Positions 1 through 20,500 of a DNA stretch of 64,000 nucleotides are shown piece after piece. The notes under the pieces are model-generated. The model was not told the origin of the DNA, did no database searches, and saw only the letters and a list, made by a program, of their open reading frames with translations. Numbering within the stretch: position 1 is the stretch's first letter; every line of letters begins with the position of its first letter. A program made the translations under genes and the position numbers. Location of the stretch: the NCBI RefSeq assembly GCF_055900595.2, contig NZ_CM148325.1. One strand, written 5' to 3'.

Positions 1-557
1 GTTCAATGGAACTTGACGAAATGCTCTCCCAGCGCGACAGCATCAACTCACGCCTGCTGCGTATTGTCGATGAGGCCACCAACCCGTGGGGGATTAAAGT
101 CACCCGTATTGAAATTCGCGACGTGCGCCCACCGGCAGAGCTTATCTCTTCGATGAACGCGCAGATGAAAGCGGAACGTACCAAACGCGCTTACATCCTT
201 GAAGCGGAAGGGATCCGTCAGGCGGAAATCCTCAAAGCCGAAGGTGAAAAACAGTCGCAAATCCTGAAAGCGGAAGGTGAACGTCAGTCGGCATTCTTAC
301 AGGCCGAAGCGCGTGAACGTTCTGCCGAAGCGGAAGCCCGCGCCACCAAAATGGTGTCTGAAGCCATCGCCTCCGGTGATATTCAGGCGGTGAACTACTT
401 CGTAGCGCAGAAATACACCGAAGCGTTACAACAGATCGGTTCGTCCAGTAACAGCAAAGTAGTGATGATGCCATTAGAGGCCAGCAGCCTGATGGGGTCG
501 ATTGCCGGGATTGCTGAACTGGTGAAAGACAGCGCCAACAAGCGGACTCAGCCATGA
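1..557 (+). CDS. qmcA: QmcA (YbbK) stomatin/prohibitin-family membrane protease modulator, 3' part (5' end outside window)
   Basis: ORF 6..557 translation has SPFH-family character with EAEG/KAEGE repeats; followed by overlapping ybbJ as in the E. coli qmcA-ybbJ operon. Confidence 0.85.
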
Positions 558-1012
558 TGGAGTTAATGGTCGTTCACCCACATATTTTCTGGCTCAGTCT
601 CGGCGGGTTGCTGCTGGCTGCCGAAATGCTGGGCGGCAATGGTTATCTGTTGTGGAGCGGCGTGGCAGCGGTGATTACCGGCCTGGTGGTCTGGTTGCTG
701 CCGCTGGGCTGGGAGTGGCAAGGGGTGATGTTTGCCATCCTGACGCTGCTCGCTGCCTGGCTGTGGTGGAAATGGTTGTCGCGGCGGGTGCGCGAACAAA
801 AGCACAGCGACAGTCATTTAAACCAGCGCGGGCAGCAGTTGATTGGCCAACGTTTTGTTCTGGAATCTCCGCTGGTCAACGGGCGCGGTCATATGCGCGT
901 CGGTGACAGTTCATGGCCCGTCAGCGCCAGCGAGGATCTCAGTGCAGGTACGCATGTTGAGGTGATTGCGATAGAAGGGATAACGCTGATTATCCGTGCG
1001 GTCATCGCCTGA
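554..1012 (+). CDS. ybbJ: NfeD-like inner membrane protein YbbJ
   Basis: 152-aa ORF with N-terminal hydrophobic helices and C-terminal beta domain; start overlaps qmcA stop. Confidence 0.85.
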
Positions 1013-1094
1013 TGCGACGCTGGCGCGTCTTATCATGCCTACAAAATATGCCCGAATCGTAGGCCAGATAAGGCGCTTGCGCCGCATCCGGCAT
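1011..1094. repeat. REP/BIME-type extragenic palindromic element (two REP units in inverted orientation)
   Basis: gatgcgacgctggcgcgtcttatcatgcctac ... gtaggccagataaggcgcttgcgccgcatccggcat immediately after the ybbJ stop. Confidence 0.6.
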
Positions 1095-1114
1095 ATAGCC
1101 GAGTAGAGGCAAAA

Positions 1115-1477
1115 TTACTCTTCCCGGCCTTTACCCATACTTTTTTGGTCTTCATCCGGATAATGTTTTTTTAGATATTCCAGGACGTTTTTATTGACCT
1201 TGTGTTGCGTATACACCCACCCTTTCCAGTAATCAGGCTGGTCCAGGTAAACTTCTGGCGGAATGGTGAAATCAGAAAGCGTTAACCATTCGGCTAACAG
1301 ATCGGGGTTTCGTTTCTGGATCAACTGCAACAGCATAATCAGTGACATAGCTGAGGCAGGAGCCGTACTATCGCCACTTAAATATTTCCACACTGTTGAC
1401 CGGTTCGAACGAAAAAGGATGGGAAGCAATGCCCGGTCCAGATTCATTTCATTAAAAATCTTCTCAAATTCATTCAT
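1115..1477 (-). CDS. hypothetical 120-aa protein, divergent from the autotransporter gene; possible small regulator
   Basis: ORF with plausible composition; separated from the TAA gene by an AT-rich ~370-bp region. Confidence 0.45.
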   Translation of the reverse strand: MNEFEKIFNEMNLDRALLPILFRSNRSTVWKYLSGDSTAPASAMSLIMLLQLIQKRNPDLLAEWLTLSDFTIPPEVYLDQPDYWKGWVYTQHKVNKNVLEYLKKHYPDEDQKSMGKGREE

Positions 1478-1844
1478 TTAAATGTTCCTGCCTGGCGTAA
1501 ACCTCTTAAAAATTGAGATTTATCAAAGAAACGCATTTTAGCACACATCAGGAACCGCTTCACGTTTAGTCCAGAAACAGAATTTATTTCGCTTATCAAA
1601 ACAAGTCTTTACTCTTTTATACATTGAAAGAGCACGAAATAATTTCCTTTTTTATTTATATGAGAAACATTTTTTGTTTCTTATTGGTGGTGTTTACGCT
1701 TACACCAGACAAAAATGCGCTTTACATCACACAAATGGCGGCGTAGATTTCGATCATATTGCAACGTATTTTATTTCTTATTAACAATATTATTTGTTTC
1801 TTATAGAAACATTAATGCGACTTATTTTAAACAAGAGAAAATGA

Positions 1845-2861
1845 ATGAAAACTGTAAACGTAGCTTTACTGGCACTCATAATTTCAGCAACATCCAGCCC
1901 TATTGTTTTAGCTGGTGATACCATTGAAGCGGCGGCAACAGAGCTTTCAGCCATTAACTCTGGCATGTCGCAATCGGAGATTGAGCAGAAGATTACCCGC
2001 TTTTTAGAACGCACCGACAACAGCCCCGCTGCATATACCTATTTGACTGAACATCACTACATCCCTTCTGAAACACCTGATACCACTCAGACTCCCCCTG
2101 CCCAGACAGATCCTGACGCAGGACAAAAAACCGTTGCCGCTACAGGTGATGTACAGACAACCGCCCGTTATCAGAGCATGATCAACGCCCGACAGTCTGC
2201 GGTAACTGATGCCCAGCAAACGCAAATTACAGAGCAACAGGCGCAGATCGTAGCCACACAAAAAACGCTCGCCGCGACTGGAGATACGCAAAATACTGCT
2301 CATTATCAGGAGATGATTAATGCCAGACTGGCGGCTCAAAATGAGGCTAATCAGCGCACTACCACGGAACAAGGGCAGAAAATGAATGCACTGACAACCG
2401 ATGTGGCAGCACAACAGCAAAAAGAAAGGGCTCAATACGATAAACAAATGCAAAGTCTGGCGCAGAAGTCTGTCCAGGCACATGAGCAAATTGAAAGTCT
2501 GAGACAAGATTCCGCACAAACGCAACAACAGTTAACCAACACGCAAAAACGGGTCGCAGATAACAGCCAACAAATTAACACGCTCAATAACCATTTCGAT
2601 TCGCTGAAAAACGAAGTTGAGGACAATCGTAAAGAAGCCAATGCGGGAACTGCATCTGCCATCGCTATCGCCTCACAACCACAGGTGAAAACCGGTGACT
2701 TGATGATGGTGTCAGCGGGAGCGGGAACGTTCAACGGTGAATCTGCGGTGTCTGTAGGAACATCTTTTAATGCCGGAACGCATACGGTACTTAAAGCAGG
2801 TATTTCTGCGGATACACAATCTGATTTCGGTGCGGGTGTCGGCGTGGGATATTCGTTCTAA
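1845..2861 (+). CDS. short trimeric autotransporter adhesin (signal peptide, Q-rich coiled-coil stalk with tandem ~40-aa repeats, YadA-like C-terminal membrane anchor)
   Basis: N-terminal signal peptide MKTVNVALLALIISATSSPIVLA; C-terminus ...ASAIAIASQPQ...GDLMMVSAGAGTFNGESAVSVGTSF...GAGVGVGYSF matches the YadA-type anchor pattern. Confidence 0.75.
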   Translation: MKTVNVALLALIISATSSPIVLAGDTIEAAATELSAINSGMSQSEIEQKITRFLERTDNSPAAYTYLTEHHYIPSETPDTTQTPPAQTDPDAGQKTVAATGDVQTTARYQSMINARQSAVTDAQQTQITEQQAQIVATQKTLAATGDTQNTAHYQEMINARLAAQNEANQRTTTEQGQKMNALTTDVAAQQQKERAQYDKQMQSLAQKSVQAHEQIESLRQDSAQTQQQLTNTQKRVADNSQQINTLNNHFDSLKNEVEDNRKEANAGTASAIAIASQPQVKTGDLMMVSAGAGTFNGESAVSVGTSFNAGTHTVLKAGISADTQSDFGAGVGVGYSF

Positions 2862-2914
2862 TTTTAACAGCAATTTCTTATTCGCAATTTTCCGCACATT
2901 ATTTAAGGTTAACA

Positions 2915-3337
2915 ATGATGAATAGCTCCATTAAATCGTTTTCCCTGCTGGCGGTTATATTACTGGCTGGCTGTAGTTCACCCACTTCCCGCATCGCAGA
3001 TTGCCAAGCGCAGGGAGTCAGTCATGACACCTGTTATCTCGCAGAACAACAGCGTCAGGCGGCTATTTTAAGTGCATCAGAAGCACAGGCATTTAAAAAT
3101 GCAGAAGCCGCACAACATGCCCAGGCCGCTAAAAAATCTATTTATAAAGGATTTGGCGTCACCTTCAGAATGAGCAGTAAGAACTTTGCTTATCTCAATG
3201 ATTCATTATGTGCCATAGATGAAGATAATGCCGATGCCACGGTTTATCAGTCGGGTCTGTATAACGTCATTGTTTATCATCACACAGGAAAAGTCGCCTT
3301 AATGAAAGAAGGCCAGTTTGTGGGTTATTTAAAATGA
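2915..3337 (+). CDS. putative lipoprotein (lipobox LLAGC), unknown function
   Basis: signal peptide plus LAGC lipobox; stop overlaps start of next ORF. Confidence 0.55.
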   Translation: MMNSSIKSFSLLAVILLAGCSSPTSRIADCQAQGVSHDTCYLAEQQRQAAILSASEAQAFKNAEAAQHAQAAKKSIYKGFGVTFRMSSKNFAYLNDSLCAIDEDNADATVYQSGLYNVIVYHHTGKVALMKEGQFVGYLK

Positions 3338-3528
3338 AACTCACGCTTATACATATTATGATTATTGGCGCTTTTATCTTTGCATTCTTGCAAGTGGTAT
3401 TATTAGCCTCCCTGGTTCACGCTGTGAATGTTAACAATGAAATCCAGGAAGGCTTATTTCAATCGGGGCGCATAATGGTAGAAAGTTTGCAGCATATTCT
3501 TTCGGTGCAAACGGGGATTAATGGGTAA
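3334..3528 (+). CDS. small hydrophobic membrane protein (64 aa), translationally coupled to upstream lipoprotein gene
   Basis: ATGA overlap with preceding gene; one clear TM helix (IMIIGAFIFAFLQVVLLASLV). Confidence 0.4.
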   Translation: MKLTLIHIMIIGAFIFAFLQVVLLASLVHAVNVNNEIQEGLFQSGRIMVESLQHILSVQTGING

Positions 3529-3616
3529 GGATACCGTTACCATTTCCAGAGCAATAGTCACCAGCGTAATTTTCTGGCACAGTTCAGGGAACTGAAATTT
3601 TGGCTAAGGAGTAGCC

Positions 3617-4840
3617 ATGCTTTTTCCCTGTCGAAAACCTGAAGTACGTCTACTGAATAATACCGCTGCAGGCGTCATTTTTTCGGTGAAGTCCGGGAAA
3701 GGATTTCTGTGTCAGTGTGTGATTTACGATCCGCACCCTTATGGGCTTATCCGTTCGCTCTGCTGGCAGGATGTCCCGTTAATACGTTTCTGGTCCGAGG
3801 CTGGCTGCCCCACCTGTGCGGAATTTGTCTACAGCGGTTTTGCGGATGATGAACAGGGAGCCGCCCGGTTTTTGTCTGCTCTCGAAAACTGGAATCGCCC
3901 GTGGTCTGGCATGACGGACGCTTTTGCCGCGCTGACACCGCTGTTCTCATGCATGGCTGATGGCTATTATCTGCTCGAAGATCGTGAACTTTACCCGACG
4001 GATGGCAACGGGCATTTCTTTTGGGCGGCAACGGACCATAGCGCCAGTAATCCGGCGACCGTTGCCGTCTGGGATCCTGAATATTGCTATTTCAGTGACA
4101 CCGCCCCCTGTTTTCTTCTACCCGGCCAGCCGCCATCACATTTTAATCCTGAGCGTACGACGTTTTATCGCAATAAACCGGACGCCCCCGCTCTGGCCTG
4201 GTATCTCCCTGATTCCTATCTCTGCGTTCTGCTCGACGGACACCATAAAGCAACAGCCGCCGCGCTGGAAGGGCGACCGCTCAAAACACTGGTGCTCAGC
4301 ACGGCAACCCATTTTAATGATGAGCAACAAACCCTGGTATTTCCTGGCGGAGAATGTCTGCACAAAACAGAGCTGCTGTGTCACGTTCCCAAACTCACTG
4401 AATGGAAAACATTACCGCCCAACGCATGGGAGAGTTTCGGCCCTGATAAGCACATCAGCCCATCCGAAACCTGGTCAGAAGAGTTGCAGCAGAGCGTCAG
4501 CCGGTACCCTTCACTGGATCAAGCCTGGCAAATTGTTGAGGCCGGGAATTTGAGCGAAGCTCGTATTAAGCGCATGATCCAACAAGGTTTGGAGGGGGAT
4601 GAAAAGGCTGATGTTATTTTGCAGGCACTGTTTTCCACACACTCGCCGCTTTTTGTTGACTTTGCTCGATTCGTTATCAGCCATCCGGCATACGCCATTT
4701 ATCGCCCTCTCACCTTCCGGTTGATGGCGCAAAACCGAACGCCGCAAGCAGATGCCTTTTTTCTGGATTTTGCCATCAACGATGACGGCGAACGTCCGGA
4801 GTTGACGAAAATAATGGACGACTATTTCCGTATGCCTTAA
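3617..4840 (+). CDS. hypothetical 407-aa protein, Cys-rich N-terminal part, no family recognised
   Basis: long uninterrupted ORF with RBS (aaggag) upstream; stop codon directly abuts the cueR stop. Confidence 0.6.
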   Translation: MLFPCRKPEVRLLNNTAAGVIFSVKSGKGFLCQCVIYDPHPYGLIRSLCWQDVPLIRFWSEAGCPTCAEFVYSGFADDEQGAARFLSALENWNRPWSGMTDAFAALTPLFSCMADGYYLLEDRELYPTDGNGHFFWAATDHSASNPATVAVWDPEYCYFSDTAPCFLLPGQPPSHFNPERTTFYRNKPDAPALAWYLPDSYLCVLLDGHHKATAAALEGRPLKTLVLSTATHFNDEQQTLVFPGGECLHKTELLCHVPKLTEWKTLPPNAWESFGPDKHISPSETWSEELQQSVSRYPSLDQAWQIVEAGNLSEARIKRMIQQGLEGDEKADVILQALFSTHSPLFVDFARFVISHPAYAIYRPLTFRLMAQNRTPQADAFFLDFAINDDGERPELTKIMDDYFRMP

Positions 4841-5248
4841 TTACCCCGCCCGATGATGACAGCAGCCAGAGAGATTTTCGATAATCGGGCAGTCGGCGCT
4901 GTCATCGCCAGGGCAGGCATTCGCCAGCGCCAGTAGCTGGTCGCGCATGGATTGCAGCTCCTCAATGTGTCGTTCGATCTCCGCCACTTTCTCCAGGGTG
5001 CGCCGTTTTACATCGGCGCTGTGACGCTGCGGGTCGTTAAACAGATTCACCAGTTCGCCGCTCTCTTCCAGGTTAAAGCCCACCTGGCGCGCCTGGCGCA
5101 GTAAGGTCAGTTCGTTGAGATGCTGCTGCGTGTAGGTTCGATAACCATTTTCGCTGCGCATCGGCGGCGTCACCAGCCCCTTTTCTTCATAGAAGCGAAT
5201 GGCTTTGCTGGTCAGGCCGGTAATTTTTGCTACATCGCTAATGTTCAT
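4841..5248 (-). CDS. cueR: MerR-family copper-responsive regulator CueR
   Basis: 135-aa translation [26 protein letters not shown]...[24 protein letters not shown] recognised as E. coli CueR. Confidence 0.95.
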
Positions 5249-6420
5249 CGTTCGCGCAACGCCTCCTGTGCTTTGTTAAAGGGTTTCAACAGATAATCCA
5301 GCACGCTTTTTTTGCCAGTGCGGATATCGACCGTCGCCACCATACCGGGAAATATCGGAAACTGCTGTTTGCTTTTATTTTCCAGATGGTTGCTGAAAGT
5401 GCGAATGTACACCCGATAGTAATAAACATCGCGCCGCACTTCATCCTGTACAGTGTCCGGTGAAATCACCGCCACTTCCCCTGGCAGGCCGCCGTAGATG
5501 GAGTAATCGTAAGCGGTTATTTTCACCAGCGATTTTTGCCCCGGATGGATAAACGCCACATCGCGGGGGGAGATTTTTGCCTCGATCAACAGTTGCTCAT
5601 CCAGCGGCACGATAGTCATGAGTTTACCACCGGGGGCGATGACGCCGCCAACCGTGGTGACGTCAATGTCCTGAACAATGCCTCGCACCGGCGCAGTAAA
5701 GTTGAGCCGGGTGAGAGAATCTTCCCGCCCGCGGATCACCGAACGCTGGGTTTCCACTTCCGCATTGGCTTTCGCTAACTCTTCGCGCGCTTGTACGTAG
5801 TATTGCGTACGCACGTCGCTAAGTTTGTTTTCCAGTTCATTGGCCTGGCGTTGCAGGCGCAGCACTTCAACGCTGCTCGCCGCCCCCTGTTTCACCAGCG
5901 GCTGGGTCATCGCCAGTTCGCGGTTGACCAGGCTAATCCCCTGCGTCAGCCCGGTGGTGGCTTTGTTCAACCCGTCGCGGCGAGTGTTATATAACGCCGT
6001 TTCCGACTCGATAAGTTCGGGGAATTTATTCAGTTCGTCAGGGAAGACCAGCGGTTTATTGCTCACTTCTGCCCGCAGCCGCGCCGAGGTTGCCAGCGCC
6101 GCATACAGCCGCGACATCGCTTCCTGGACGTCGGATTCCGTTTTGGTGCGGTTAAGCTGCGCCAGCGGCTGCCCCTGTTCGACAATATCGCCAACCTTCA
6201 CGTCGAGATGATACAAAATCCCGCCTTCCAGCGACTGCACCACCTGTTCGCGTCCAGAAGGTTCTACCGTGCCGCTGCCGGTGGTGACTTCATCAAGCTG
6301 GAAGTACCACGCCCAGCCGAGAAAACAGAGCAGCATCACAGCGGTAACGCGTACCGCCAGCGCCGAACGCGGCAAGCGGGGTTCAGTCAGGCCACGGTTG
6401 TATTGCAGTTGTCCGTTCAT
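5245..6420 (-). CDS. type I secretion membrane fusion protein (HlyD/LapC family periplasmic adaptor)
   Basis: 391 aa; N-terminal TM anchor, coiled-coil and beta-barrel/lipoyl motifs typical of HlyD family; overlaps ABC gene start and cueR start. Confidence 0.9.
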
Positions 6421-8579
6421 GCAGCAGACCCCTTATTCTTCTCCTGCAACACCACCCGTCGCGCCGTGGGTTCGCTCTGTTCACGCAAAATGGCCTCTTT
6501 CGCGCCATCCATCACAATCCGCCCCTGATCCATCACGATAATGCGGTCCACCAGTTGCAGCATCGCCGTGCGGTGAGTGGCGATGACCAGCGTGCGATGC
6601 CCAATCCACTGTTTTAGTTGTTCAATTAAATACGCTTCCGCCATTTCATCCAGCGAGGCGCTGGGTTCATCGAGCAGGACGATGTTGGGTTGAGAGATGA
6701 GGAGCCGCGCCAGCAGCAGCGTTTGCCGCTGGCCGCCAGAAAGACCAAATCCCCCTTCCTGAATCATGTAGTTAAGGCCGTTTTTCTGCTTCTGCACAAA
6801 CGGCAGCGCCCCGCTGAGGGTTAATGCGCGTTCGATATCTTCATCGCTGGCCTCCGGCATCCCCATGGTGAGGTTTTCCCGCAGCGAACCGAAGAACAGT
6901 CGCCCGGTCTGGCTGAGCAGCCCCATGTCGCGACGCAGATCTGCCGGATCAAGCTGCCCGATGCTGATGTTATCCAGCAGCACCTGCCCCTGCTGGGCGA
7001 TACGCATTCCGGCGAGCATTTGCAGTAGCGTTGATTTACCCGCGCCGTTGCGCCCGAGAATGGCGATTTTCTCACCGGCCTGAATGTTGAGTTTGCCAAT
7101 CGCTACATCGGCAATTTTCTCTTCTTCGTCGTAATAAAACACCGCGTTGCTAAACTGATAATTACCGTGCAGTACCGCTTTATGCACCAGTTTGCCGTGC
7201 TCCGGCTGATCCACCGGGCGCTTCATCAGTTCATCAAGCCCGTTACGCGCCACTTTCGCCTGCTGCCAGCGCGAAAGCACGCCGGATATCTGCGACAGCG
7301 GCGCGATGGTGCGCGAAGCCAGAATCGTCGTTCCGACCAGCGCGCCGGTGGTCATGTCGCCGCTCATCACCATAAAGCAGCCCACCAACAGCACCACCAC
7401 ATAGACGATGGATTGCACTTCCTGCGTCCAGGTGAGCAGCAGCCCGGTGAGAAAACGTTGCTTCATGCTGATAGATGACGCCACGTCGTTGGTGTGATTC
7501 CACTGATTCTGGAAACGCTGTTCAGCACGCAGCAGTTTAATGTCTTCAATCGACTGCACGGCCTCGACAAGCGTAGCGTTGCGCACTGCCGATTCGCGCA
7601 TCCCTTCGTTCGCCAGCCGCGCCAGCGGGCGTTGTACCAGCAGGCCGGGGATCACCAGCAACGGCAGCGCCAGCAAAACAACCAGCACCAGCCAGCCGCC
7701 GATCATCCACAGAATAAAAACAAACAGCAGGAAGAATGGCAGATCCGCTACCGCGCCAATGGTGGTGGAGGTGATCAGCTCCCGCACCGATTCCAGTTCG
7801 CGGATCTGTGAGATAAACGATCCGGTGGATTTCGATCGCACGTTATTTTTCAGCCGTAATGCGTGACCAAACACGCGATCCGAAATACGCAGATCCGCCC
7901 GTTTGCCGATCACATCGGAAAGGTGTGTGCGCACCATGCGCATACAGAACTCAAACAGGATCGCCATCATCACCCCGGCGAACAGCACCCATAGCGTCGG
8001 GTAGGACTGCGCCGGAACAACGCGGTCGTAAACCTGCATCGAGAAAATCATCGCCGCCAGCGCCAGCACGTTCGCCACCAGCGAGGCCAGCATAATATCG
8101 CCGTAGCGCCGCCAGTCTTTTAGCGAAAGATTCCAGAACCAGTTAGCCTGATACGGGCGAATGTAGTCATCCACCCGCGCATCGGGAATGGCGCTGAGCG
8201 GTCGTAGCAGCGCCAGTTCAACGATTTTGTCTTCTATATCCGTGACGTTTAGCGTAGTTTCCAGCCCTTCGTCACCGCTGAACTGAACGCTGATATTGTC
8301 GTGATTGTCGCGGCGGGTGATAACGCCAATCTGTTGATTATCAAACACCGCGATCAGCGGCAGCCGCCAGGGGTTAAGCGAATCAGCGGAAAATTCTACC
8401 AGCCGTAGCCCCATTCCCAGTTGCCGCGCCATGTCGGTGAGCAACTCTTCCCGCTTGCTGTCGCGCTCCCAGTTGACGGTCGCGCGCACATTCTCCTGGG
8501 AAAAATCGAGGCGGTAATAGCGCGCCACGGCGATCATCGCCTCCAGCCAGGCTTCCACGGACTGGGCATTTTTTTTCAT
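6417..8579 (-). CDS. type I secretion ABC transporter with N-terminal C39-like domain (HlyB/LapB type)
   Basis: 720 aa; Walker A GRNGAGKST, ABC signature LSGGQRQ, Walker B LLDEPSASLD, six-TM core, N-terminal peptidase-like domain. Confidence 0.9.
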   Translation of the reverse strand: MKKNAQSVEAWLEAMIAVARYYRLDFSQENVRATVNWERDSKREELLTDMARQLGMGLRLVEFSADSLNPWRLPLIAVFDNQQIGVITRRDNHDNISVQFSGDEGLETTLNVTDIEDKIVELALLRPLSAIPDARVDDYIRPYQANWFWNLSLKDWRRYGDIMLASLVANVLALAAMIFSMQVYDRVVPAQSYPTLWVLFAGVMMAILFEFCMRMVRTHLSDVIGKRADLRISDRVFGHALRLKNNVRSKSTGSFISQIRELESVRELITSTTIGAVADLPFFLLFVFILWMIGGWLVLVVLLALPLLVIPGLLVQRPLARLANEGMRESAVRNATLVEAVQSIEDIKLLRAEQRFQNQWNHTNDVASSISMKQRFLTGLLLTWTQEVQSIVYVVVLLVGCFMVMSGDMTTGALVGTTILASRTIAPLSQISGVLSRWQQAKVARNGLDELMKRPVDQPEHGKLVHKAVLHGNYQFSNAVFYYDEEEKIADVAIGKLNIQAGEKIAILGRNGAGKSTLLQMLAGMRIAQQGQVLLDNISIGQLDPADLRRDMGLLSQTGRLFFGSLRENLTMGMPEASDEDIERALTLSGALPFVQKQKNGLNYMIQEGGFGLSGGQRQTLLLARLLISQPNIVLLDEPSASLDEMAEAYLIEQLKQWIGHRTLVIATHRTAMLQLVDRIIVMDQGRIVMDGAKEAILREQSEPTARRVVLQEKNKGSAA

Positions 8580-8582
8580 TCT

Positions 8583-11500
8583 CTACACCACCATCAACTG
8601 ATGATTCGCCAGTAAAGTGGCGAGGTCGGTGTGCACGCCCGTCAGCGTGACCATGTTAGTTGTCGCAAAGCCGCCGCCCGTGCCGTCACGGTCGATCTGC
8701 ACGATGGTGTCGCTGCCGCTCTGGGTAACTTTGACAAAATCACCGATGTTTCCGGCCTGGGCATCCAGCGTTGCCACACCGTTGACATAGCTGGCTTTGC
8801 CGTTTCCGGTGTAGCCGCTGCCCTGTAACAGTTCACGAATATCAATGCGATCGGTGTCGGCGGTGCCTTCCCAGGTGCCTACCGTAAAGCCATTCACCAC
8901 GTCCGAACCGTTGCCCCCGGCGGCGTCACTGGCGTTAAGCAGTTTATATAGCAAGGTGTCGTGACCGCCGTTACCGATGTTGAGCGTGTCGTTGCCGCCG
9001 CGCCCTTCCAGTTGGTTATCGCCGCTGCTGCCGGTCAGAGTGTCATTAAAATTCGAGCCGGAAATCCCTTCGATATTGGTAAATGTCGAGGTATTAAAAC
9101 CGGTGGCCTGTGCGGTGGTAACGCTTAAGTTAGCGGTGACGCCCACCGTTGAGAGACGGAAATCGACCACGTCCATGCCGCCGTTCGCCAGCCAGGTTCC
9201 TGTGCCGGAGCTGTACACCCAGCCGCCGGAACCGTCGTAGGTGTCGGTGCCTGCGGTGGCGAAGAAGGTGTCGTTATAGCCAGTGCCGACAAACTTGCCG
9301 TTGTTGCTCGCCGTACCCGCTTCAGCACTGAGATCGTAAGCGTGAGTAGCATCGGTGGCCTGTAAGCCACCCCAGCTGGTATTCACCGTCTGGTCGATAT
9401 TGCTGGCGGTGGTGCCAGTGGATTTGATCAGCACCGCGTTGTAGGTTTCTCCAGCGTTAAGTCCGTAGAAGTTGACCAGCGCCGAGGTGTCGTTAACGCC
9501 CATCCCCGACTGCGGGTTGATGATTTGTGTCGCCACCAGCACGCCCGCCGAGTTGTACAGCTTCACGGTATTGCCGTAATAGACATTAATACCGTTGGGA
9601 TCGGTGATACGCAGGTGCAACGAGGTGCCGTAGCTCACCGTGTTAGTGTTACGGATGAGGAACACGCTGCCCGACTGTTTGGTTACCAGCACATCCACCG
9701 CGCCGTCCCAGTCGTAGTCCATTGCCGCCACGCCGCTGGTGGTGCCGCTCTGGCTGCCACCGAGTGCCGATTGTGTCCAGTTACTGGCGTTGCTGACGTT
9801 AGTATAAAGATACGACTGTCCGGTCTGGGCGATACGGGCGATGTCCATTAACCCGTCATGATCCCAGTCGACGGCCAGGCTGAATTGACTGGCGTAGGTG
9901 GTTGCCGTCGCGCCGACCGCCACCGGGCTACCCAGCACGCCGTTGGTGTTGAATAACAGCGAGCCGTAGTTAGCTCTTCCCTGGCTGGCGGGCAGGAAGA
10001 GGTCCATATCGCCGTCACCATCGAAATCGGCCCATGTCATGGAAACGGATGTCGAGTTTCCCCCCGAGCCAGGACTACTGAGGAAAGTATTGACGGTGTT
10101 TTGTCCCCAGACGAAGGTGCCATTGCCCTGGCTTATCAACGATGAGAGGGTGAAGTTGTTGTTCAGGTTGAAAGTGTGCTGAACCAGATCAATTCTGCCG
10201 TCATTATTAAGATCGACACCGGAACCTTCGTTGAGTGACAAATAACCTGTCACCGCCCCACCGACCGTAGCACTCCCCCCGTTATTAGCGGTGGTGGAGT
10301 TGCCTGTCAGGGTGCCGGCGTTGTTCCACAGGAAAGTGTTGGAGTCCGGCCCCCCGGCGTCGCCAATCCAGAAATCAAGATAACCGTCGCCCTCTTTATC
10401 GAACGCCACAATCGAGCCATACCACGTCAGGGTGCCAACGTTCACCTGGATGGCGCTGGAAAACGTACCGTCGCCGTTATTAGTAAAGCCGTTGATATAC
10501 CCCGTGCCGTAGTCATCACGGGTAATAAACAGATCGCCCGTACCGTTACGGTTGTAATCGGCGATGGAGCTGGTGGCATAGTTGTTGCCACTTTGCACCA
10601 GCGTCAGGGCGGTTTTCGACCAGGTGAGCGGATCGGTGGATTGCATAATTTGCTGGTTGGCCAGCACCGTCCACATCCCGTGGTTGTCGAGTCCATAAGT
10701 CAGCCCCCAGGCGGTGGATTTGCTGGTGGTGGTCCAGGTCGGTGTGTAATCTATCGCCGCGTTAACCGTTACCGTGCCAGTGCTGACGTTGGCGGTGTTG
10801 CCATTGCCCGCCGAGCTTTTCACCTGCGCGGTGACGTTATAGGCGGTCGCAGACGCCGCCAGCGCGTCGGTATCCGGCAGTTGTACATACCAGGTGTTGT
10901 GCGCCGGATCGACGACCACCGCACCGCCTGGCTGCGAAGTGTAAGTTTTGCCGTTGATCACCACTTCAACATACTGTCCGCTGGCGAGTGCCGCGGTGAG
11001 TACGCCGCTGATAATCGGCGTGGTATCGCGTGTGGTTTGATTGGTGATTTGCGCAAGCGTGGTCGGAATAGAGGTATCGACCGTCAGGACAAAATCACTG
11101 GAGGAGGTGATATTCCCGGCCAGATCCACCACTCGCGCACTGTAGGTGTACGCGCCGCTGACCAGACCACTGTCGCTGTAAGTCCAGTTCAGCGCGCCGA
11201 CCATCGTTACCGCACCTAACAGCAGACCGTTACGGTAGAGGTAAACGACTTCACCGCTGGCAAGCGGCGCAGAGAGCACGCCGTTGAGCAACGGCGTGGT
11301 GTCGTCGGTGGCCTGCGAATTGCTAAACGTCCCCTGCCGCTGCCCGACATCATCGGTATACGACACAATGGTCGGCGTGGCGGTGGGGTTAATCGTATCG
11401 ACCACCACCGTTTTCGATACCACCGGGCCTGTATTTCCCGCCAGATCCAGCACCCGTACCTGATAAACGTAGCTGCCGTCGGTCAGCGTGCGGCTGTCAG

Positions 11501-14500
11501 TGTAAGTCCACTGCGTACCGTTGGTGGTGAGCGTGGTCCAGGTCGCGCCGCCATCGAGGCTAATCTGCGCCACTTCGCCGCTGGCAAGCCCCGCCCCCAG
11601 CGAACCGGTCAGCGTGAGCGTGGTATCGCTGGTGATAAAGTCGGTGGCCGAACTCCCCGTATCGGTGCTGATGCTGGCGATGGTGAGCACCTGCGCCGGG
11701 TTAACGGTGTCAATCTGCGCCGACTGGCTGCCGGTTGCGCCAACGTTGCCCGCTAAATCAACCACCCGCACCTGCCAGGTGGTGGTGCCGTTGGTCAGCG
11801 TACGCCCGTCCACATATGTCCAGTTCAGACCGTCTGCGGCAACGGTCACGTTCACCCAGGTTGCGCCGTTGTCGGTACTGATTTGCGCGAACTCATTAGC
11901 GCCGAGCGCCGCGCCCAGCACGCCGCGCACGGTAAGCGTGGTGTCGCTGGTAATAAAATCGCTGCTGCTGGCTCCGGTGTCATCGCTGATACCGGTAATA
12001 GTGATGCTTTTCGCCGCTTCCGGGCTGATGGTGTCAACCACCACGTTTTGCGTCGCGGTCTGCCCGACATTCCCCGCCAGATCCACCACCCGCACCGTGT
12101 AATTCCATGTGCCGTCGGTGAGCGTGCGACCATCGGCATAGCTCCAGCTGGTGCCGATAACGGTTAAGGTGGCCCAGGTAACGCCACCATCAAGGCTGAT
12201 TTGCGCCCGTTCATCTGCCGCCAGCGCCGCGCCGAGCGTCCCGCGCACGGTCAACGTAGTGTCACGGGTCACAAAATCGCTGCTGCTTAACCCGGTGTCA
12301 TCGCTGATGCCCGCAATGACGATGGTTTTGCTCGCCAGCGGCGCGGTGGTATCCACGGTGACTATCTGGCTGGCGGTCGCGCCGATATTTCCGGCGGTGT
12401 CGATCACCCGTACCTGATAGTTGTAGTTACCGTCGGTCAGCGTGCGCCCGTCAAGATAAGTCCAGGTTAATCCATTTACCGCCAGATTCTGCCAGGTGGT
12501 GCCGCCATCGATACTGATTTGCGCGAACTCACCGGCAGAAAGTGCCGAGCCCAGCGTGCCGCTTACCGCAAGCGTCGTGTCGCTGGTGACAAAATCATTA
12601 GTAATCAGACCTGTATCGGTGGTGATCGCGCTAATGGCGATGGTTTTCACCGCGGGATCTGGCGCAGTAGTGTCGATCACCACATTCTGGCTATCAGTCG
12701 CCCCGACGTTGCCCGCCGCATCAATCACCCGCACCTGATAGAGATAGTTACCATCGGTCAGCGTGCGGCTGTCGTTATAGCGCCAGGTCGTGCCAGTAAC
12801 GGTAAGCGTGCTCCAGGTTACACCGCCGTCGATACTGATTTGCGCCGTCTCGTTACTGGCAAGCGCGGCGGTGAGTGAGCCGTTGACCACCACCGGGCTG
12901 ACGCTGGTGATAAAGTCGCTGGCGCTAAGGCCAGTGTCGGCTTGCAGGGAATCAATATTAATGCCCATCGCCGGGGCGCTGAGATCGACGGTAATGGTGT
13001 GATTGCTGCTACCGATGTTGCCAATGGCGTTGCTCACCGAAGCGTTAATCACATAGGCATTGCCGTCCGCCAGCGCGGTGACATCGGCGCTGCCGAGGGT
13101 GTAGCTCCAGCTACCACCGGTCTGCACCGTAGTGGTGTAGGTTTTACCGTTTAAGGTCAGAGTCAGCGTCTGCCCGACTGGGGCGGTGGTGGTGCCGCTG
13201 ATCACCAAAGACGCGCCGTGTTCCGCCGCGTTCACCACATCATCGCCCGCAAGGGTGTTAATGGTGACGGTGGGGACGTCGCCATTCAACGTCACGCCAC
13301 GGCTGGCGCTACCGGGGTTTCCGGCCTGATCGCTGACCGTCGCGCTGATGGTGTAGCTGCCGTCGCTTAATCCGGCAAACTGCTGCGCCGGAATAAACAC
13401 CGACCAGCTTCCGCCACTGCCGACCGTTGCGGTCCAGTTTTGTCCGTTAAAGGTGACGCTCACCGTCTGGCCCGCTTCGGCGGTGGTGGTGCCGCTGATG
13501 GTCTGCCCGGCAAGCTGCTCGGCGTTGTTGATAATATCGTCACCCGCCACCGTGGCGATGGTGACCGTTGGCGCAACGGTATCGACGGTCAGGGCGTGCG
13601 TGGTTTGACCGGGGTTACCGGCACGATCGTTCACGCTGGCGGTAATGGTCTGCGCACCCTGCCCGAGCGATGCCAGATCCGCCGCAGGCACGTTCAGCGC
13701 CCAAGTGCCATTGGCGGCAACCGTGGCGGTATAGGTTTTGCCGCCAAAGGTGACGGTGACCGTTTGCCCCACTTCCGCGCTGGTCGAGCCGTTAAGGGTT
13801 AACGGCTGCTGCTGTTCGGCGGCGTTGAGTCGATCGTCCGTCGAAACGGTGTTAATGCTGATAATCGGCGCGGTGAGATCCACCGCCACGCTGCGCGAGG
13901 CCGTGGCGCTGTTTCCGGCGCTGTCCTGCGCGGAGGCGCTAACCGTATAGCTGGTGCCATCCGCAAGCGCCGCAACGTCTGCCGCCGGCACGTTCACGCT
14001 CCAGCTCCCGTTGCTCTGAATGGTGGCGCTGTAGCCTTTGCCGTTAAGTAACACGGTCACCACCGTACCTGCGGCAAAGTTCGTTCCGGTGCCGCTCAGG
14101 GTCAGCGCACTGCCTGCTTCGGCGGCGTTAATCACGTCATCGCTGGCAACGGTGTTGATGCTGATTGCCACCGCCGTTAAATCGACGGTGAACGGATGGC
14201 TGACGCTGACCGGGTTTCCGGCGCTGCTCTGGCCTGTCACGTCAACGGTTAACGCCCCCGCAGGCCAGGCGCTGACGTTTGCCGCCGGAATGCCAACGCT
14301 CCAGCTTCCATCCGCCTGTACCGTGGTGGAATACGCCACACTGTTGATGGTAACCGTCAGCACAGCACCTGCATTCAGGCCGCTACTGCCGCCGGTGATC
14401 ACCAGCGCCTGACCATGCTCGATGCTGTTGACGATATCATCGCCCGCCACGGTATCCACCCGCAGCCCTGGCAGATTGGCATCAATGGTGATATCCCGCG

Positions 14501-17500
14501 TGCCGCTACCCGTATTGCCATTCGCGTTGGTAACCGAGGCGGTAATGGTCAAATCACCATTGCCCAACGCCTGGAGATCGGCTGCCGGAACGCTGACGCT
14601 CCAGCTTAAGTTGCCCTGTACCGTAGCGGTGTAAGTGTTACCGCCCAGCGTCACGGTAACTGTATCGCCAGCGGCGGCGCGGGTCACCCCCCCGCTGATG
14701 GTTTGATCGGCCCCGGCTTCGGCGGCGTTGATAATATCGTCGTCCGCCACGGTATTGATGGTGACGCCTGGCAGGCCGCTGTCGACCAGTAAATTCGCCT
14801 GGCTGCTGGCGGTGTTGCCTGCCGCACTGGTGGCGCTGGCGCTGACGGTATAGTTAGCCTGACCTAAGGCCGCCAGATCGCTCACCGGCACGGTTAAGGT
14901 CCAGTTGCCTGCTGCGTCGGTGGTAGCGCTGTAGTTATGACCGTTGAGCGTGACGGTAACCTGTGCGCCGGTCGCCAGCCCCGTACTGCTACCGCTGATG
15001 GTCAACGGCTGGCCTTTTTCATCGGCGTTCAGAACGTTATCGCTGCTGATGGCGTTAAAGGTAATGGTCGGCAGCCCGGTATTGACCGTCACCTGATGGC
15101 TGGCGTTGCCGCTGTTTCCGGCGGCGTCAGTGACGCTGGCGTTAATGGTCACCGTGCCGTTTGCCAGTGCCGAAACAACGCTTGCCGGGACGCCGACGCT
15201 CCAGTTGCCGCTGGCATCCAGCACCGTGGTGAAGGTATTTGTGCCGATAGTCACCGTCACGGTGTTACCGGTTGCCGCACCAGTGGCAGAGCCGCTGATA
15301 ATCTGCGCCTGGGCGTGTTCCGTCGCGTTGATCACATCATCACCCGCGACAGTGTTGATGGTGACGACCGGAACGGAAGTATCCACCGTCAGGTTGTGGT
15401 TAACCGAGGTCGGGTTTCCGGCCTTGTCGCTCACCGCCGCGCTGACGGTGTAGTTGCTGGCGGTCAGAGCGCTTAAGTCGGCTGGCGGTACGCTGATACT
15501 CCAGCTGCCGTCCGTTTGTACCGTGCCAGTATAGTTTGCGCCATTGAGCGTGACGGTCACCGTCTGCCCGGCTTCCGCCGTGCTGCTGCCGGTGATGGTC
15601 AGCGCCGCACCCGCTTCGGCGGCGTTAAGAATATCGTCGCCCGCAATGGTGTTAATGGTCACCGTTGGCGCGGTGGCATCGACGCTGTAAGCGTGGGTAG
15701 TGGTGGCACTGTTGCCGTTAACGTTGCTGACGCTGGCCTGCGCGCTGGCATCACCATCACGCAGGGCTGCCATATCCGCCGCCGGAACCGTGGTGCTCCA
15801 GGAACCATTCGCCGCGACACTTGCAGTATAGGTTTTACCGCCAAAGGTCACGGTGACCGTTTGCCCGGCCTCCACGCCAGAGGTGCTGCCGGAGAGCGTT
15901 AATGCCGCGCCTTTTTCAGCGGCGTTAATCACATCATCGGTGGTAATGGCGTTGATGCTGACCGCCACCGCCGAGAGATCGACAGTCACTGGATGCGTAA
16001 CGCTGACCGAGTTTCCGGCGGTAGTGCTGCCGCTCGCCGTAATCGTCACCGCCCCCGCAGGCCAGGCGCTGACATCCACCGCCGGAACGCCGACGCTCCA
16101 GGTGCCATCCGCCAGCACTGCCGCAACATAGGTTTGCCCGTTAATGGTCAGCGTGACATTGCTACCCACCGCCAGCCCAGAGCTGCTGCCGGTAATCACC
16201 AGCGCCTGACCGTGCTCGATAATGTTGACCACATCATCGCCCGCCACGGTATCGACCCGCAGACCGGGGAGATTCGCGTCTATGGTGATTTCGCGCGTGC
16301 CGTTACCGGTATTGCCTACGCTGTTCGTTACCGAAGCCGAAATGCTCAGCTCTCCGTTGCCCAACGCCTGTAACGCCGAAGCCGGAACATCGACACTCCA
16401 GCTTAAGTCTGCCTGTACCGTAGCGGTGTAAGTCGCCCCACCGAGCGTCACGGTCACCGTGTCGCCCGCCGCGGCCCTCGTGACCTGCCCGCTGATAGTT
16501 TGAGTTGCCCCCGCTTCGGCGGCGTTAATAATATCGTCCGTTGCCACAACGTTAATGGTGACGCCCGGTAGCGCGGTATTAACCTGCACGTTATGGCTGG
16601 CGGAACCGCTATTGCCATCAACATCGGTTGCGGCGGCAGTCACCGTATAAGTCGCTTCACCGAGCGTACCAACCGCAGACGCCGGAACAGTCACGCTCCA
16701 GTTCCCGGAAGCATCGGCAGTGGTGGTGTAATTTTGCCCGTTGAGCGTAACAGTTACCTGCGTGCCCGCAGGCTGGTTGCTGGTGCCGGAAATCGACAGA
16801 TCCGCGCCTTTCTCCGTGGCGTTGATGATGTCATCGACGGCGATGGTGTTAATGGCGAGTATCGGTGCACCGAGCGCCACGCTGACAGTGTGCGAGGCCG
16901 TGCCGCTGTTGCCTGCGGAGTCGGTAACCGTGGCGGTAATGGTCACATCGCCCTGGGCCAGCGCGGAAATCACGCTGGCAGGCACGCCGATGCTCCAGTT
17001 GCCGTTGGCGTCCAGCACGGTGGTGTAGGTGGTCGTGCCAATCGTCACGGAAACCGTGTTACCCGTCGTCGCGCCCGTTGCCGAGCCGCTGATAATCTGC
17101 GCCTGAGCATGTTCCGTGGCGTTAATGATGTCATCGCCTGCTACCGTGTTAATGGTGACGACCGGAGCGGCAAGATCCACCGTCAGGTTATGCGTCGCCG
17201 AGGTTGGGTTGCCCGCTTTGTCGCTGACCGCCGCGCTCACCGTATAGGGGCTGGCGGTAAGGTCGGCTAAATCGCCAGTTGGTACGCTGACGCTCCAGCT
17301 CCCGTCTGCCTGCACGTTGCCGCTGTAATTGATGCCGTTTAGCGTCACGGTCACTGTCTGCCCGGCTTCTGCGGTGCTGGTGCCGCTGATGGTCAGCGCC
17401 GATCCCGCTTCGGCGGCATTAAGAATATCGTCGCTGGCGATGGTGTTGATAGTAACGGAGGGCGCGGTGGCATCGACGCTATAAACATGCGTTGCCTGGG

Positions 17501-20500
17501 CGTTGTTACCCGCGACGTTGCTGACGCTGGCCTGGATGTTTGCTGCGCCATCCGGCAAGGTTGCGAGATCGGCTGCTGGGATCGTCAGCCCCCAGGTATT
17601 ATCCGCGGCAACCGTGGTGGTGTAGCTTTTGCCACCGAAAATAACGGTAATGGTCTGCCCCGCTTCCACGCCGGAGGTGGTGCCAGAAAGCTGCAAATCA
17701 GTGCCTTTTTCGGCGGCGTTTATCACATCGTCAGTGGAGAGTGTATTGATGGTAATCGCCACGGCAGCGAGATTGACCGTGACCGGATGGCTAATGCTGG
17801 TTGTGGTTCCGGCGGTATTAGTGCCAGAGACGGCAATATTGACCGTCCCCGTAGGCCAGTTAGCCACGTCCGCTGCCGGAACGCCGACGCTCCAGGTGCC
17901 ATCGGCGAGTACCGTTGCGCCGTAGGTGACGCTATTGATAACCACCGTCAACGCCGCGCCCGCCGCCAGTCCGGTACTACTGCCGGTGACCACCAGTGCC
18001 TGAGTGTACTCAATGCTGTTAATCACATCATCGCCTGCCACGGTATCAACCCGCAGACCTGGCAAGTTGGCATCTATCACGATGTCGTGCGTTGCGGTGC
18101 CGGTATTATTTGCGGAATTGGTCACCGAGGCGCTGATGGTCAGTTCACTGTTACCCAGCGCCTGCAAATCTGCCGCAGGCACGCTGACGCTCCAGCTTAA
18201 ATCTGGCTGCACGGTGGCAATGTATTGATTACCGCCGAGCGTGACAGTGACCGAATCTCCTGCTGCTGCCGTCCCCGTAACCTGTCCGCTGAGGGTCTGG
18301 TTAACGGCGATTTCAGCGGCGTTGATAATGTCATCGCCCGCCACGGTATTAATAATCACCCCAGGCAGGAGCGATTCGACATTCACCGTATGGGTGGTGC
18401 TGCCGTTGTTGCCCGCGCTGTCGGTGGCACTGGCGCTAATCTGGTATACCGCCTCGCCCAGTGCGCCGACCGCCGAAGCAGGCACGGTAACGCTCCAGTT
18501 GCCGGAGCCGTCGGTGGTGGCGCTGTACGCCAGGCCGTTCAACATCACGGTGACCGTAGTGCCTGCCGCCAGGCCGCTGGAGACGCCGCTGATGATCAGA
18601 TCCTGGGTTTTCTCGGTATTGTTAATGATGTCATCGCCGGAGACGGTGTTGATGGTCAGCGTCGGGCCGCTGAGATCAACGGTCACATCGTGAGTCGTGC
18701 TGTCGCTGTTGCCCGCGCGATCGCTCAGGCTGGCGGTGATGGTCTGGCTACCGGTTGCCAGTGCCGTGACATCCGCCGCCGGAATACCCACACTCCAGTT
18801 ACCGGAGGCGTCCAGCGTTGTGGTGTAGTTTTTACCGTTCAGATTAACCGTGACCACATCGCCCGCCGCCGCGCCCGTACTGGTGCCGCTCACCACCAGC
18901 GCCTGACCATGTTCGATGGCGTTGATAATGTCATCGCCCGCGACGGTATTAATGGTGAGATCCGGCGCGGTAACGTCCACCGCCAGTGCATGATCCGCGC
19001 TTGCCGGGTTGCCCGCTTTGTCGCTCACCGTGGCGGTCACGGTATAACTGCTGGCGGTTAATCCGCTTAAATCTGTCGCCGGAACGTTCACACTCCAGGT
19101 GCCATCGGCCTGGACGGTAGTCTGGTACGTGTTGTTATTGAGCGTGACAGTCAGCGTCTGCCCGGCCTGCGCCGTGGTGGTGCCGCTGATAGTTATCCCC
19201 GCGCCCGCTTCACTCACGTTGAGAATATCGTCGCTGGCGATGGTGTTGATGGTCACAAGCGGCGCGGTGGCATCGACGCTGTACGCGCGATCGGCCTGGG
19301 CGCTGTTGCCGTTAATGTTGCTGACACTCGCCTGCACGTTGCCCGCGCCGTCCGGCAACGCAGCGAGATCGGCAGGCGGCACATTCACCGTCCAGCTACC
19401 GTTGGCTTCCACAGTGGTGGTGTAATTTTTGCCGCCAAAGGTGACGGTCACCGTCTGCCCGGCTTCTACACCGCTGGTACTGCCGCTCACCACCAGCGTT
19501 TCGCCTTTTTCGACGGCATTGATCACATCATCGCCGGAGAGAGTGTTAATGGTTATGGCGACCGCCGCCAGATCGACGGTAACCGGATGGGTAATGGTGG
19601 AGGTTGTTCCGGCGCTGTTGGTGCCGCTTACCGTGATATCCACCGTACCCGCAGGCCAGTTGCTGACGTCTGCCGCCGGAACGCCGAGGTTCCATGTACC
19701 GTCAGCTAACACCGTGGCAGCGTAAGTGACGTTGTTAATCACGACCGTTAATGCCGTTCCTGCCGTCAGCCCGGTGCTGCTACCTGTTATCACCAGCGCC
19801 TGATTGTGCTCAATGCTGTTAATAACATCATCGCCCGCTACGGTATCGACCCGCAAACCAGGCAGATTGGCATCGATCGTAATATCGCGCGAGCCGCTGC
19901 CGCTGTTGCCCACGACGTTGGTGACCGAGGCGTTAACTGTCAGGTCGCCGTTACCAAGCGCCTGAATATCCGCCGCCGGAACGCTGACACTCCAGCTTAA
20001 ATTAGCCTGCACCGTAGCGGTGTAGGTGTTGCCGCCCAGCGTGACGGTGACCGTATCGCCCGCCGCCGCGCCCGTCACCTGCCCGCTGATGGTTTGCACA
20101 CTGCCCGCTTCGGCGGCATTAATAATGTCATCGGTTGCCACTGCGTTAATGGTAACGCCAGGTAAGGCGCTGTTGACCAGCACATTATGGCTGACGGAAT
20201 TACTGTTGCCTGCCGTGTCGGTAACGCTCGCCGTTACCGTGTAGTTGGCTTCACCCAACGCGCTAGCTGCCGAGGCTGGCACCGTGGCGCTCCAGTTGCC
20301 ACTGCTATCGGTGGTAGCGGTGTAATTTTGTCCGTTCAGCGTCACTGTAATGGTGGTGCCTGCGGGCTGATTACTGGTGCCAGTAATTTGCAGATCCGCG
20401 CCTTTTTCTGTGGCGTTAATCACATCATCGGTGGCGATAGTATTGATACCTATCGTTGGCGAGGTGAGATTCACGGTGACCGTGCGGCTGGCATCATCGC

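Follow-up and report, generated by a model that had tools for sequence, protein, structure and literature searches.

The interval between ybbJ and cueR probably holds two independent accessory units: an O-island 29 cassette with the gmrA autotransporter gene and an unrelated gene for a 407-residue protein

Trimeric autotransporters can be accompanied by accessory proteins, as SadA of Salmonella is by the lipoprotein SadB and AtaA of Acinetobacter by TpgA. Here we analysed a 64,000-nucleotide stretch of E. coli DNA (the window; NCBI RefSeq assembly GCF_055900595.2, contig NZ_CM148325.1), in which about 3.7 kb between ybbJ and cueR encode a short YadA-type autotransporter, a lipoprotein and three further proteins. 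The closest described locus is O-island 29 (OI-29) of E. coli O157:H7, a 2,643-bp island with the genes z0638, z0639 (renamed gmrA) and z0640 (Yang et al. 2018, PMC5826968). Ogura et al. 2007 listed ECs0548 of S-loop 43 as a ‘Saa-like protein’ that is present in O157, UTI89 and APEC O1 and not in CFT073 or 536, the same distribution as that of OI-29 (PMC2323221); ECs0548 is probably the same gene as gmrA. We found that the locus in the window is this known island, OI-29 / S-loop 43, plus one unrelated gene for a protein of 407 aa, and that the autotransporter gene in it has been published before, under the name gmrA and as a transcriptional activator. The gap between ybbJ and cueR probably consists of two independent accessory units, the OI-29 cassette with the gmrA-identical autotransporter gene and the unrelated 407-aa gene. 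The original prediction, made from the sequence alone, had treated the region as undescribed, which primer mapping onto the published island (PMC5826968) overturned.

Five open reading frames (ORFs) lie between ybbJ and cueR, all at the positions originally predicted. A 120-aa ORF (1115-1477, minus strand) is followed by the 338-aa autotransporter ORF (1845-2861, plus strand; RefSeq product ‘YadA family autotransporter adhesin’), a 140-aa lipoprotein ORF with an LAGC lipobox (2915-3337, plus strand) and the ORF of a 64-aa single-pass membrane protein (3334-3528, plus strand), which overlaps the lipoprotein stop in the sequence ATGA. The fifth ORF (3617-4840, plus strand) encodes the cytoplasmic 407-aa protein with its modelled ParB/sulfiredoxin-like middle domain and stands apart from the cassette. 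The deletion-primer homology arms of the OI-29 study (PMC5826968) were mapped onto EDL933 (L004; numbers with L denote loci used for comparison). The OI-29 pair enclosed the whole island in the ybbJ-cueR gap, the z0640 pair (3272-3634) matched the 120-aa ORF, and the z0638 pair (5102-5524) matched the lipoprotein. The gmrA pair (4001-5017) exactly flanked the RefSeq coding sequence (CDS) named ‘YadA family autotransporter adhesin’, and the published gmrA cloning primer starts with ATGAAAACTGTAAACGTAGCTTTA, which is window 1845-1868. Between the window and O157, 321 of 338 residues of the autotransporter (95%) and 119 of 120 residues of the 120-aa protein (99%) were identical, with 98% identity for the lipoprotein. 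Since the gmrA primers frame the autotransporter ORF precisely, the published ‘transcriptional activator GmrA’ has, by its sequence, a predicted Sec signal peptide, an acidic stalk of putative coiled coil and a YadA β-barrel anchor.

Distribution was counted in 5426 complete E. coli genomes. The autotransporter gene was found in 1382 of them and the segment is absent from K-12, which bore out the expectation that the segment is accessory. The 407-aa gene was matched in 965 genomes, only 270 of which kept at least 80% of its length; it is eroded in most E. coli carriers. The whole segment occurred in 135 genomes. Five states were found among genomes, namely the cassette alone, the 407-aa gene alone, its pseudogene alone, both units and neither of them: O157 and other strains carry the cassette without the 407-aa gene, E. 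coli MS1266 and E. albertii have the 407-aa gene alone between ybbJ and cueR, and in AH19B041 this gene is a frameshifted remnant. The G+C content was 0.31-0.46 across most of the cassette, compared with a host-like 0.51-0.56 in the 407-aa gene. Unit 1 would therefore be an AT-rich cassette at about 1101-3597, and unit 2 the 407-aa gene at 3617-4840, presumably resident at this site in the genus. Compared with a cassette-free strain, some 26 bp between a repetitive extragenic palindromic (REP) element and the ribosome-binding site of the 407-aa gene have given way to the cassette. The REP-type palindromic elements (1007-1105, no strand assigned) lie just 3' of the ybbJ stop and form the left border of the cassette. 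In the genome search this border stretch gave many matches per genome (median 8), and Rfam returned only sub-threshold matches to the REP-derived naRNA4 (970-1129). A clean insertion with target-site duplication was considered and rejected, as the 26 bp or so of cassette-free sequence are replaced and not duplicated.

The interval had first been read as one H-NS-silenced islet of five genes gained by horizontal transfer, a reading that we now regard as unlikely. The AT-rich stretch on which it drew is real, with a G+C content of 0.31-0.37 in 300-bp windows over 1351-1950 (31% in the control region) against 0.53-0.61 in the flanks, and the absence from K-12 and the patchy distribution also fit it. 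However, each of the two, cassette and 407-aa gene, is found without the other, they differ in G+C, and the 407-aa gene occupies the same site in E. albertii. No tRNA gene was found in 1-9000, nor were flanking direct repeats, and none of the five ORFs matched an integrase or recombinase family; in PHROGs, nothing significant was returned for the four non-autotransporter proteins. As to silencing, published RNA-seq found all three named O157 genes of the cassette expressed in Dulbecco's modified Eagle's medium (DMEM; 20-96 reads per kilobase per million) and switched off together on contact with HeLa cells, so that silencing would be at most partial.

By its sequence, the autotransporter is a short protein of the YadA-anchor type, as predicted. 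Residues 1-24 (1845-1916, plus strand) form a predicted Sec signal peptide, MKTVNVALLALIISATSSPIVLA followed by GD, which was read by eye from the translation: the second residue is Lys, the core is hydrophobic, and V-L-A stands ahead of the predicted cleavage site. The stalk (residues 94-278) is rich in Gln, Ala and Thr, and the mature protein is acidic (isoelectric point 4.9). Local self-alignment revealed two copies of a 38-aa unit in the stalk (residues 94-131 and 139-176; 2124-2372, plus strand) that are about 61% identical (score 115); the predicted tandem repetition thus holds at the protein level but not in the DNA, where Tandem Repeats Finder detected no tandem repeat in the stalk. 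Residues 279-338 (2679-2858, plus strand), ending in GVGYSF, matched the YadA-like membrane anchor PF03895 over the full model (1-60 of 60, E=1.6e-11). Searches with phmmer against solved anchors gave AtaA (5.3e-7), Hia (4.3e-6 and 1.3e-5) and YadA (0.038), with residues 244-337 aligned to the solved anchors, including the barrel-entering helix. The coiled-coil families SMC, ATG16 and CCDC93 were weakly matched, and the stalk aligns to the helix that precedes the AtaA and Hia barrels. Phe is the last residue, as is usual for outer-membrane barrels. A PHROG ‘adhesin’ family matched the protein (E=6.8e-22), and its relatives are named ‘adhesin’ or ‘YadA-like’ in databases. The 67 N-terminal mature residues are allele-specific. 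In PADLOC, the autotransporter drew nothing but coiled-coil noise and the other four proteins drew no match.

From these features we infer that the 338-aa protein would be exported by the Sec pathway through residues 1-24 and would trimerise, its three four-stranded C-terminal segments (residues 279-338) forming a 12-stranded barrel in the outer membrane. At the cell surface, such a barrel would display a coiled-coil stalk, short, acidic and rich in Gln and Ala, that ends in a small variable tip, making the protein a head-less trimeric autotransporter. A close relationship to Eib was considered and rejected: the phage collection yielded only relatives with 33-42% identity over the C-terminal part, and because these phage-borne relatives are only distant, the autotransporter is not a close Eib homolog. 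A 174-aa antisense ORF (2004-2528, minus strand) was also noted within the stalk region; it may be a chance product of the Gln/Ala-rich coding sequence.

The useful outcome of the analysis is a conflict between this sequence and the published function of gmrA, in which the 338-aa product is a transcriptional activator acting at the fliA promoter. We consider that assignment distinctly improbable; it seems more probable that gmrA affects fliA indirectly, or that the effect arose from tagged constructs unable to be exported, than that a true cytoplasmic transcription factor is at work. A Sec-type signal peptide and a full YadA anchor homologous to solved anchors predict export and not a cytoplasmic location, and the mature part is acidic. 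No significant DNA-binding family was found in Pfam or NCBIfam, the best match being the coiled-coil family TMF_DNA_bd (E=0.079), and the ‘putative DNA-binding domain’ that the paper reported from CDD probably reflects a coiled-coil hit of this kind. For the binding assays the protein was purified with a His tag at its N-terminus, ahead of the signal peptide, and the construct for chromatin immunoprecipitation (ChIP) had 3xFLAG fused right after the C-terminal GVGYSF. Tags at these positions would be expected to block normal export and barrel insertion, so that the protein would be forced into the cytoplasm.

Several observations nevertheless weigh against GmrA being an exported autotransporter whose cassette partners serve it. 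Electrophoretic mobility shifts were specific, with competition, and ChIP-qPCR showed a 7.75-fold enrichment of the fliA promoter (PMC5826968). Deletion of gmrA abolished motility in eight strains of several pathotypes and was complemented, and K-12 carrying gmrA gained motility, with epistasis to fliA (PMC5826968). These motility phenotypes are the main evidence on that side, and an outer-membrane protein as read from the sequence would not explain them. The signal peptide and coiled coil were assigned by eye or from weak family matches, without dedicated predictors, and Pfam recognised no head, neck or stalk family in the 338-aa protein. Adherence to HeLa and Caco-2 cells was unchanged on deletion of OI-29 (PMC5826968), which leaves an adhesin function unproven. 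With regard to the partners, the 120-aa protein had no significant helix-turn-helix (HTH) match in Pfam and an unreliable structure model, and the lipoprotein showed no sequence relation to solved proteins, helper lipoproteins included. Our literature search found no paper linking GmrA to an autotransporter, and a search by RefSeq protein accessions found no paper at all. The transcription-factor claim has meanwhile been repeated in later reviews, which now cite gmrA as a laterally acquired flagellar transcription factor, and the published function may be wrong. If the assignment is an artefact, regulatory maps of motility in enterohaemorrhagic E. coli need correction, and so does the function assigned to a surface protein present in a quarter of E. 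coli genomes.

That the 338-aa gene is instead a decaying, N-terminally shortened remnant of 456-586 aa alleles with its own function lost is highly improbable: many Escherichia alleles of that size share 73-76% identity with its C-terminal 73% only and have longer, different N-terminal parts, and the Symbiopectobacterium copy is clearly degraded, but the 338-aa ORF is intact in signal peptide, stalk and anchor, occurs in some 1000 complete genomes at an identity of 95% or more across no less than 80% of its length, stands at the head of a cluster with 1187 members and is transcribed, and its deletion has a reported phenotype.

The autotransporter would be expressed from the AT-rich control region of 367 bp (1478-1844, no strand assigned) that separates its gene from the divergent 120-aa gene. 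Both the length and blocks of sequence are conserved across genera: the spacer measured 366-379 bp with 29-37% G+C in E. coli, Pseudocitrobacter, Symbiopectobacterium and a metagenome contig, and the cross-genus alignment contained invariant blocks. A consensus scan placed a sigma-70-like promoter, TTTACA-17-TAGATT (1721-1749, plus strand), toward the autotransporter gene. This predicted promoter, which would drive the 338-aa gene, coincides with the most conserved block of the alignment, GTGCTTTACATCACA...GCGGCGTAGATT. Two conserved AGAAAC motifs lie at 1527-1532 and 1573-1578 (plus strand). An inverted pair, AGAAAC-N7-GTTTCT (1663-1681), stands about 40-58 bp upstream of the -35 hexamer and falls inside copy one (1649-1684) of a 36-nt direct repeat. 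A second pair, GTTTCT-TAT-AGAAAC (1796-1810), overlaps the other copy of the repeat (1769-1804) and would fall in the 5' leader if 1721-1749 is the promoter. Six of the 14 AGAAAC/GTTTCT sites in the 64-kb window lie inside the 367-bp region, compared with a mean of 0.25 after shuffling, and their positions are conserved across genera. The two inverted pairs and the direct repeat bracket the predicted promoter, a layout that looks like an operator arrangement for which the 120-aa protein would be the obvious candidate binder. In one variant, E. coli ST3 (L012, 1261-2362), the spacer from the 120-aa gene to a ‘YadA-like family protein’ CDS is 1.1 kb and not 367 bp; this variant may be a disrupted longer allele.

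The 120-aa protein belongs to a narrow Enterobacterales family. Its gene was divergent from an autotransporter gene in every context fetched, with a YadA anchor in the intact copies. Pfam gave a weak match to the MqsA HTH (E=0.12), and in the AlphaFold model the order of the helices resembles that of an HTH, with a predicted local distance difference test (pLDDT) score of 56.6, which is too poor to justify a fold search. Synteny suggests that this HTH-like protein may regulate its own cassette at the AGAAAC/GTTTCT repeats around the promoter.

The lipoprotein has a family of 108 representatives. It had no relative in Pfam, single-sequence and profile searches of all PDB sequences gave nothing below E=0.1, and Pfam scans of the family members returned only unrelated single-member matches. 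Its Ser at +2 leads to a prediction of outer-membrane sorting, and it appears to be translationally coupled to the 64-aa protein, a predicted inner-membrane protein. Homologs at 40-50% identity lie directly downstream of autotransporter genes, and linkage of the two genes was seen in E. coli, Pseudocitrobacter, L017 and L019. Three of four distant homologs sampled were directly 3' of an autotransporter gene, the homolog in L020 being unlinked. A mini membrane protein usually precedes or follows these linked homologs: counterparts of the 64-aa protein, 48-68 aa long, come after the lipoprotein or autotransporter gene in L006, L007, L008, L011 and L019. On the strength of this linkage, and by analogy with SadB and TpgA, an accessory role is proposed for the lipoprotein; together with the 64-aa protein it may be a dedicated factor for biogenesis or anchoring of the autotransporter. 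Deletion of z0638 did not affect motility (PMC5826968). The C-terminal domain of about 60 aa of the lipoprotein was also recognised in 6-9 matched stretches in each of two large proteins, P0217 (1078 aa) and P0218 (1400 aa).

The gene order of the cassette and its AT-rich spacer recur in Pseudocitrobacter, Symbiopectobacterium and a metagenome contig. In Pseudocitrobacter and the metagenome contig (L006, L007, L008) the cassette lies between qmcA and fetA, with autotransporter alleles of 363-473 aa; this junction is one gene pair from the E. coli ybbJ-cueR site, in the same neighbourhood. In Symbiopectobacterium (L009, 3520-4621) the autotransporter is a 174-aa truncation that lacks an anchor and two ORFs of 64 aa and 115 aa make up the split lipoprotein, with a regulator-like gene of 109 aa intact. 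L019 (196-8414) has two tandem YadA-anchor genes followed by a lipoprotein and a 65-aa membrane protein, and the conserved promoter block (GCTTTACATCACA) and AGAAAC motifs stand upstream of its autotransporter genes. Next to these genes lie an NfeD gene and the gene of a large serine recombinase (600 aa); the arrangement may represent a mobile version of the cassette. The recurring four-gene cassette offers a compact, testable model for the regulation and assembly of short autotransporters, its parts being a candidate regulator, the AGAAAC control region, the autotransporter, the lipoprotein and the mini membrane protein.

The 407-aa protein of the second unit represents a widespread uncharacterised family with a confident structure model (AlphaFold, pLDDT 89.9). 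In the model, a beta domain that bears a CPTC motif forms the N-terminal part and a HEAT-like helical repeat the C-terminal part, and the middle domain was assigned from the model to the ParB/Srx fold, with a DGHH(R/K)-type motif in which G-H-H is invariant. The Pfam ParBc profile did not match the query or any of 60 family members. Candidate relatives in the PDB from a family-profile sequence search were discarded as chance helical-repeat matches. The modelled fold would be compatible with nucleotide-binding or phosphotransfer activity. A Salmonella enterica homolog with 53% identity belongs to a cluster of 2700 member sequences; its gene (L005, 6001-7239) is flanked by rihA and an Hsp70-family gene and has DjlB-like and DUF1266 genes as neighbours. 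Members of the family also occur in Superficieibacter and Clostridia.

At the left flank, ybbJ (554-1012) is annotated as NfeD family, and at the right flank cueR (4841-5248, minus strand) is an NCBIfam equivalog (E=3.9e-93). The expected adjacency of these genes in K-12 was confirmed in the K-12-derived MC1061 (L002), where ybbJ ends at 2505 and cueR starts at 2506, so that their stops abut directly. The last 28 bp or so of ybbJ differ between the window (985-1012) and L002 (2478-2505), and the protein ends in ...LHIRAVSS in K-12 and in ...LIIRAVIA in strains with an occupied gap. This difference in the ybbJ 3' ends points to a recombination junction inside the 3' end of the gene.

Beyond cueR, a type I secretion adhesin locus is present as predicted, with an HlyD-family gene (5245-6420), an ABC transporter (6417-8579) and an intact giant repeat adhesin ORF of 6325 aa (8583-27560, minus strand). 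The notion that two adhesin systems flank cueR stands for this locus, which does adjoin, and is left unproven for the autotransporter by the adherence data. The counterpart of the giant adhesin is frameshifted in enteroaggregative E. coli (EAEC) 042 and O157:H7 according to the EAEC 042 genome paper (PMC2808357). MC1061 retains a 98-bp frameshifted HlyD-family remnant beside cueR (L002, 2910-3007), and the same remnant is found in MS1266 and AH19B041. The remnant suggests that the entire type I secretion adhesin locus was deleted in the lineage of K-12.

In relation to known systems, the locus is no new kind of system but ordinary accessory DNA. It resembles OI-29 of O157 in its site between ybbJ and cueR and in the same four ORFs in the same order, with the three named proteins 95-99% identical. 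It differs from OI-29 in the extra intact 407-aa gene between the cassette and cueR, of which O157 has none, and the OI-29 paper (PMC5826968), which names three genes, does not include the 64-aa ORF among them. Compared with the ParB/KorB CTPases, sulfiredoxin, SerK and SbnI, the 407-aa protein lacks a Pfam ParBc match and has a unique N-terminal CPTC beta domain and a HEAT-like C-terminal repeat; unlike parB, its gene has no partition-site or ParA context and stands as a single gene at different loci in Escherichia and Salmonella. The autotransporter shares with the type Vc proteins YadA, Hia and AtaA, and with Saa, Eib and UpaG/EhaG of E. coli, a predicted signal peptide, a putative coiled-coil stalk leading into a four-strand anchor and, with the solved examples, homology of that anchor, whereas it is very short (about 314 aa when mature), has no recognisable head, neck or known stalk-motif domains, and gave no adhesion phenotype for OI-29 in the single published test. 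The lipoprotein is like SadB and TpgA in being encoded by a small gene, here with an LAGC lipobox, whose operon linkage to the autotransporter is kept across genera. No homology to SadB turned up in the PDB sequence searches, and its gene lies downstream of the autotransporter gene whereas sadB lies upstream; in contrast to both SadB and TpgA, it is coupled to an additional 64-aa membrane protein.

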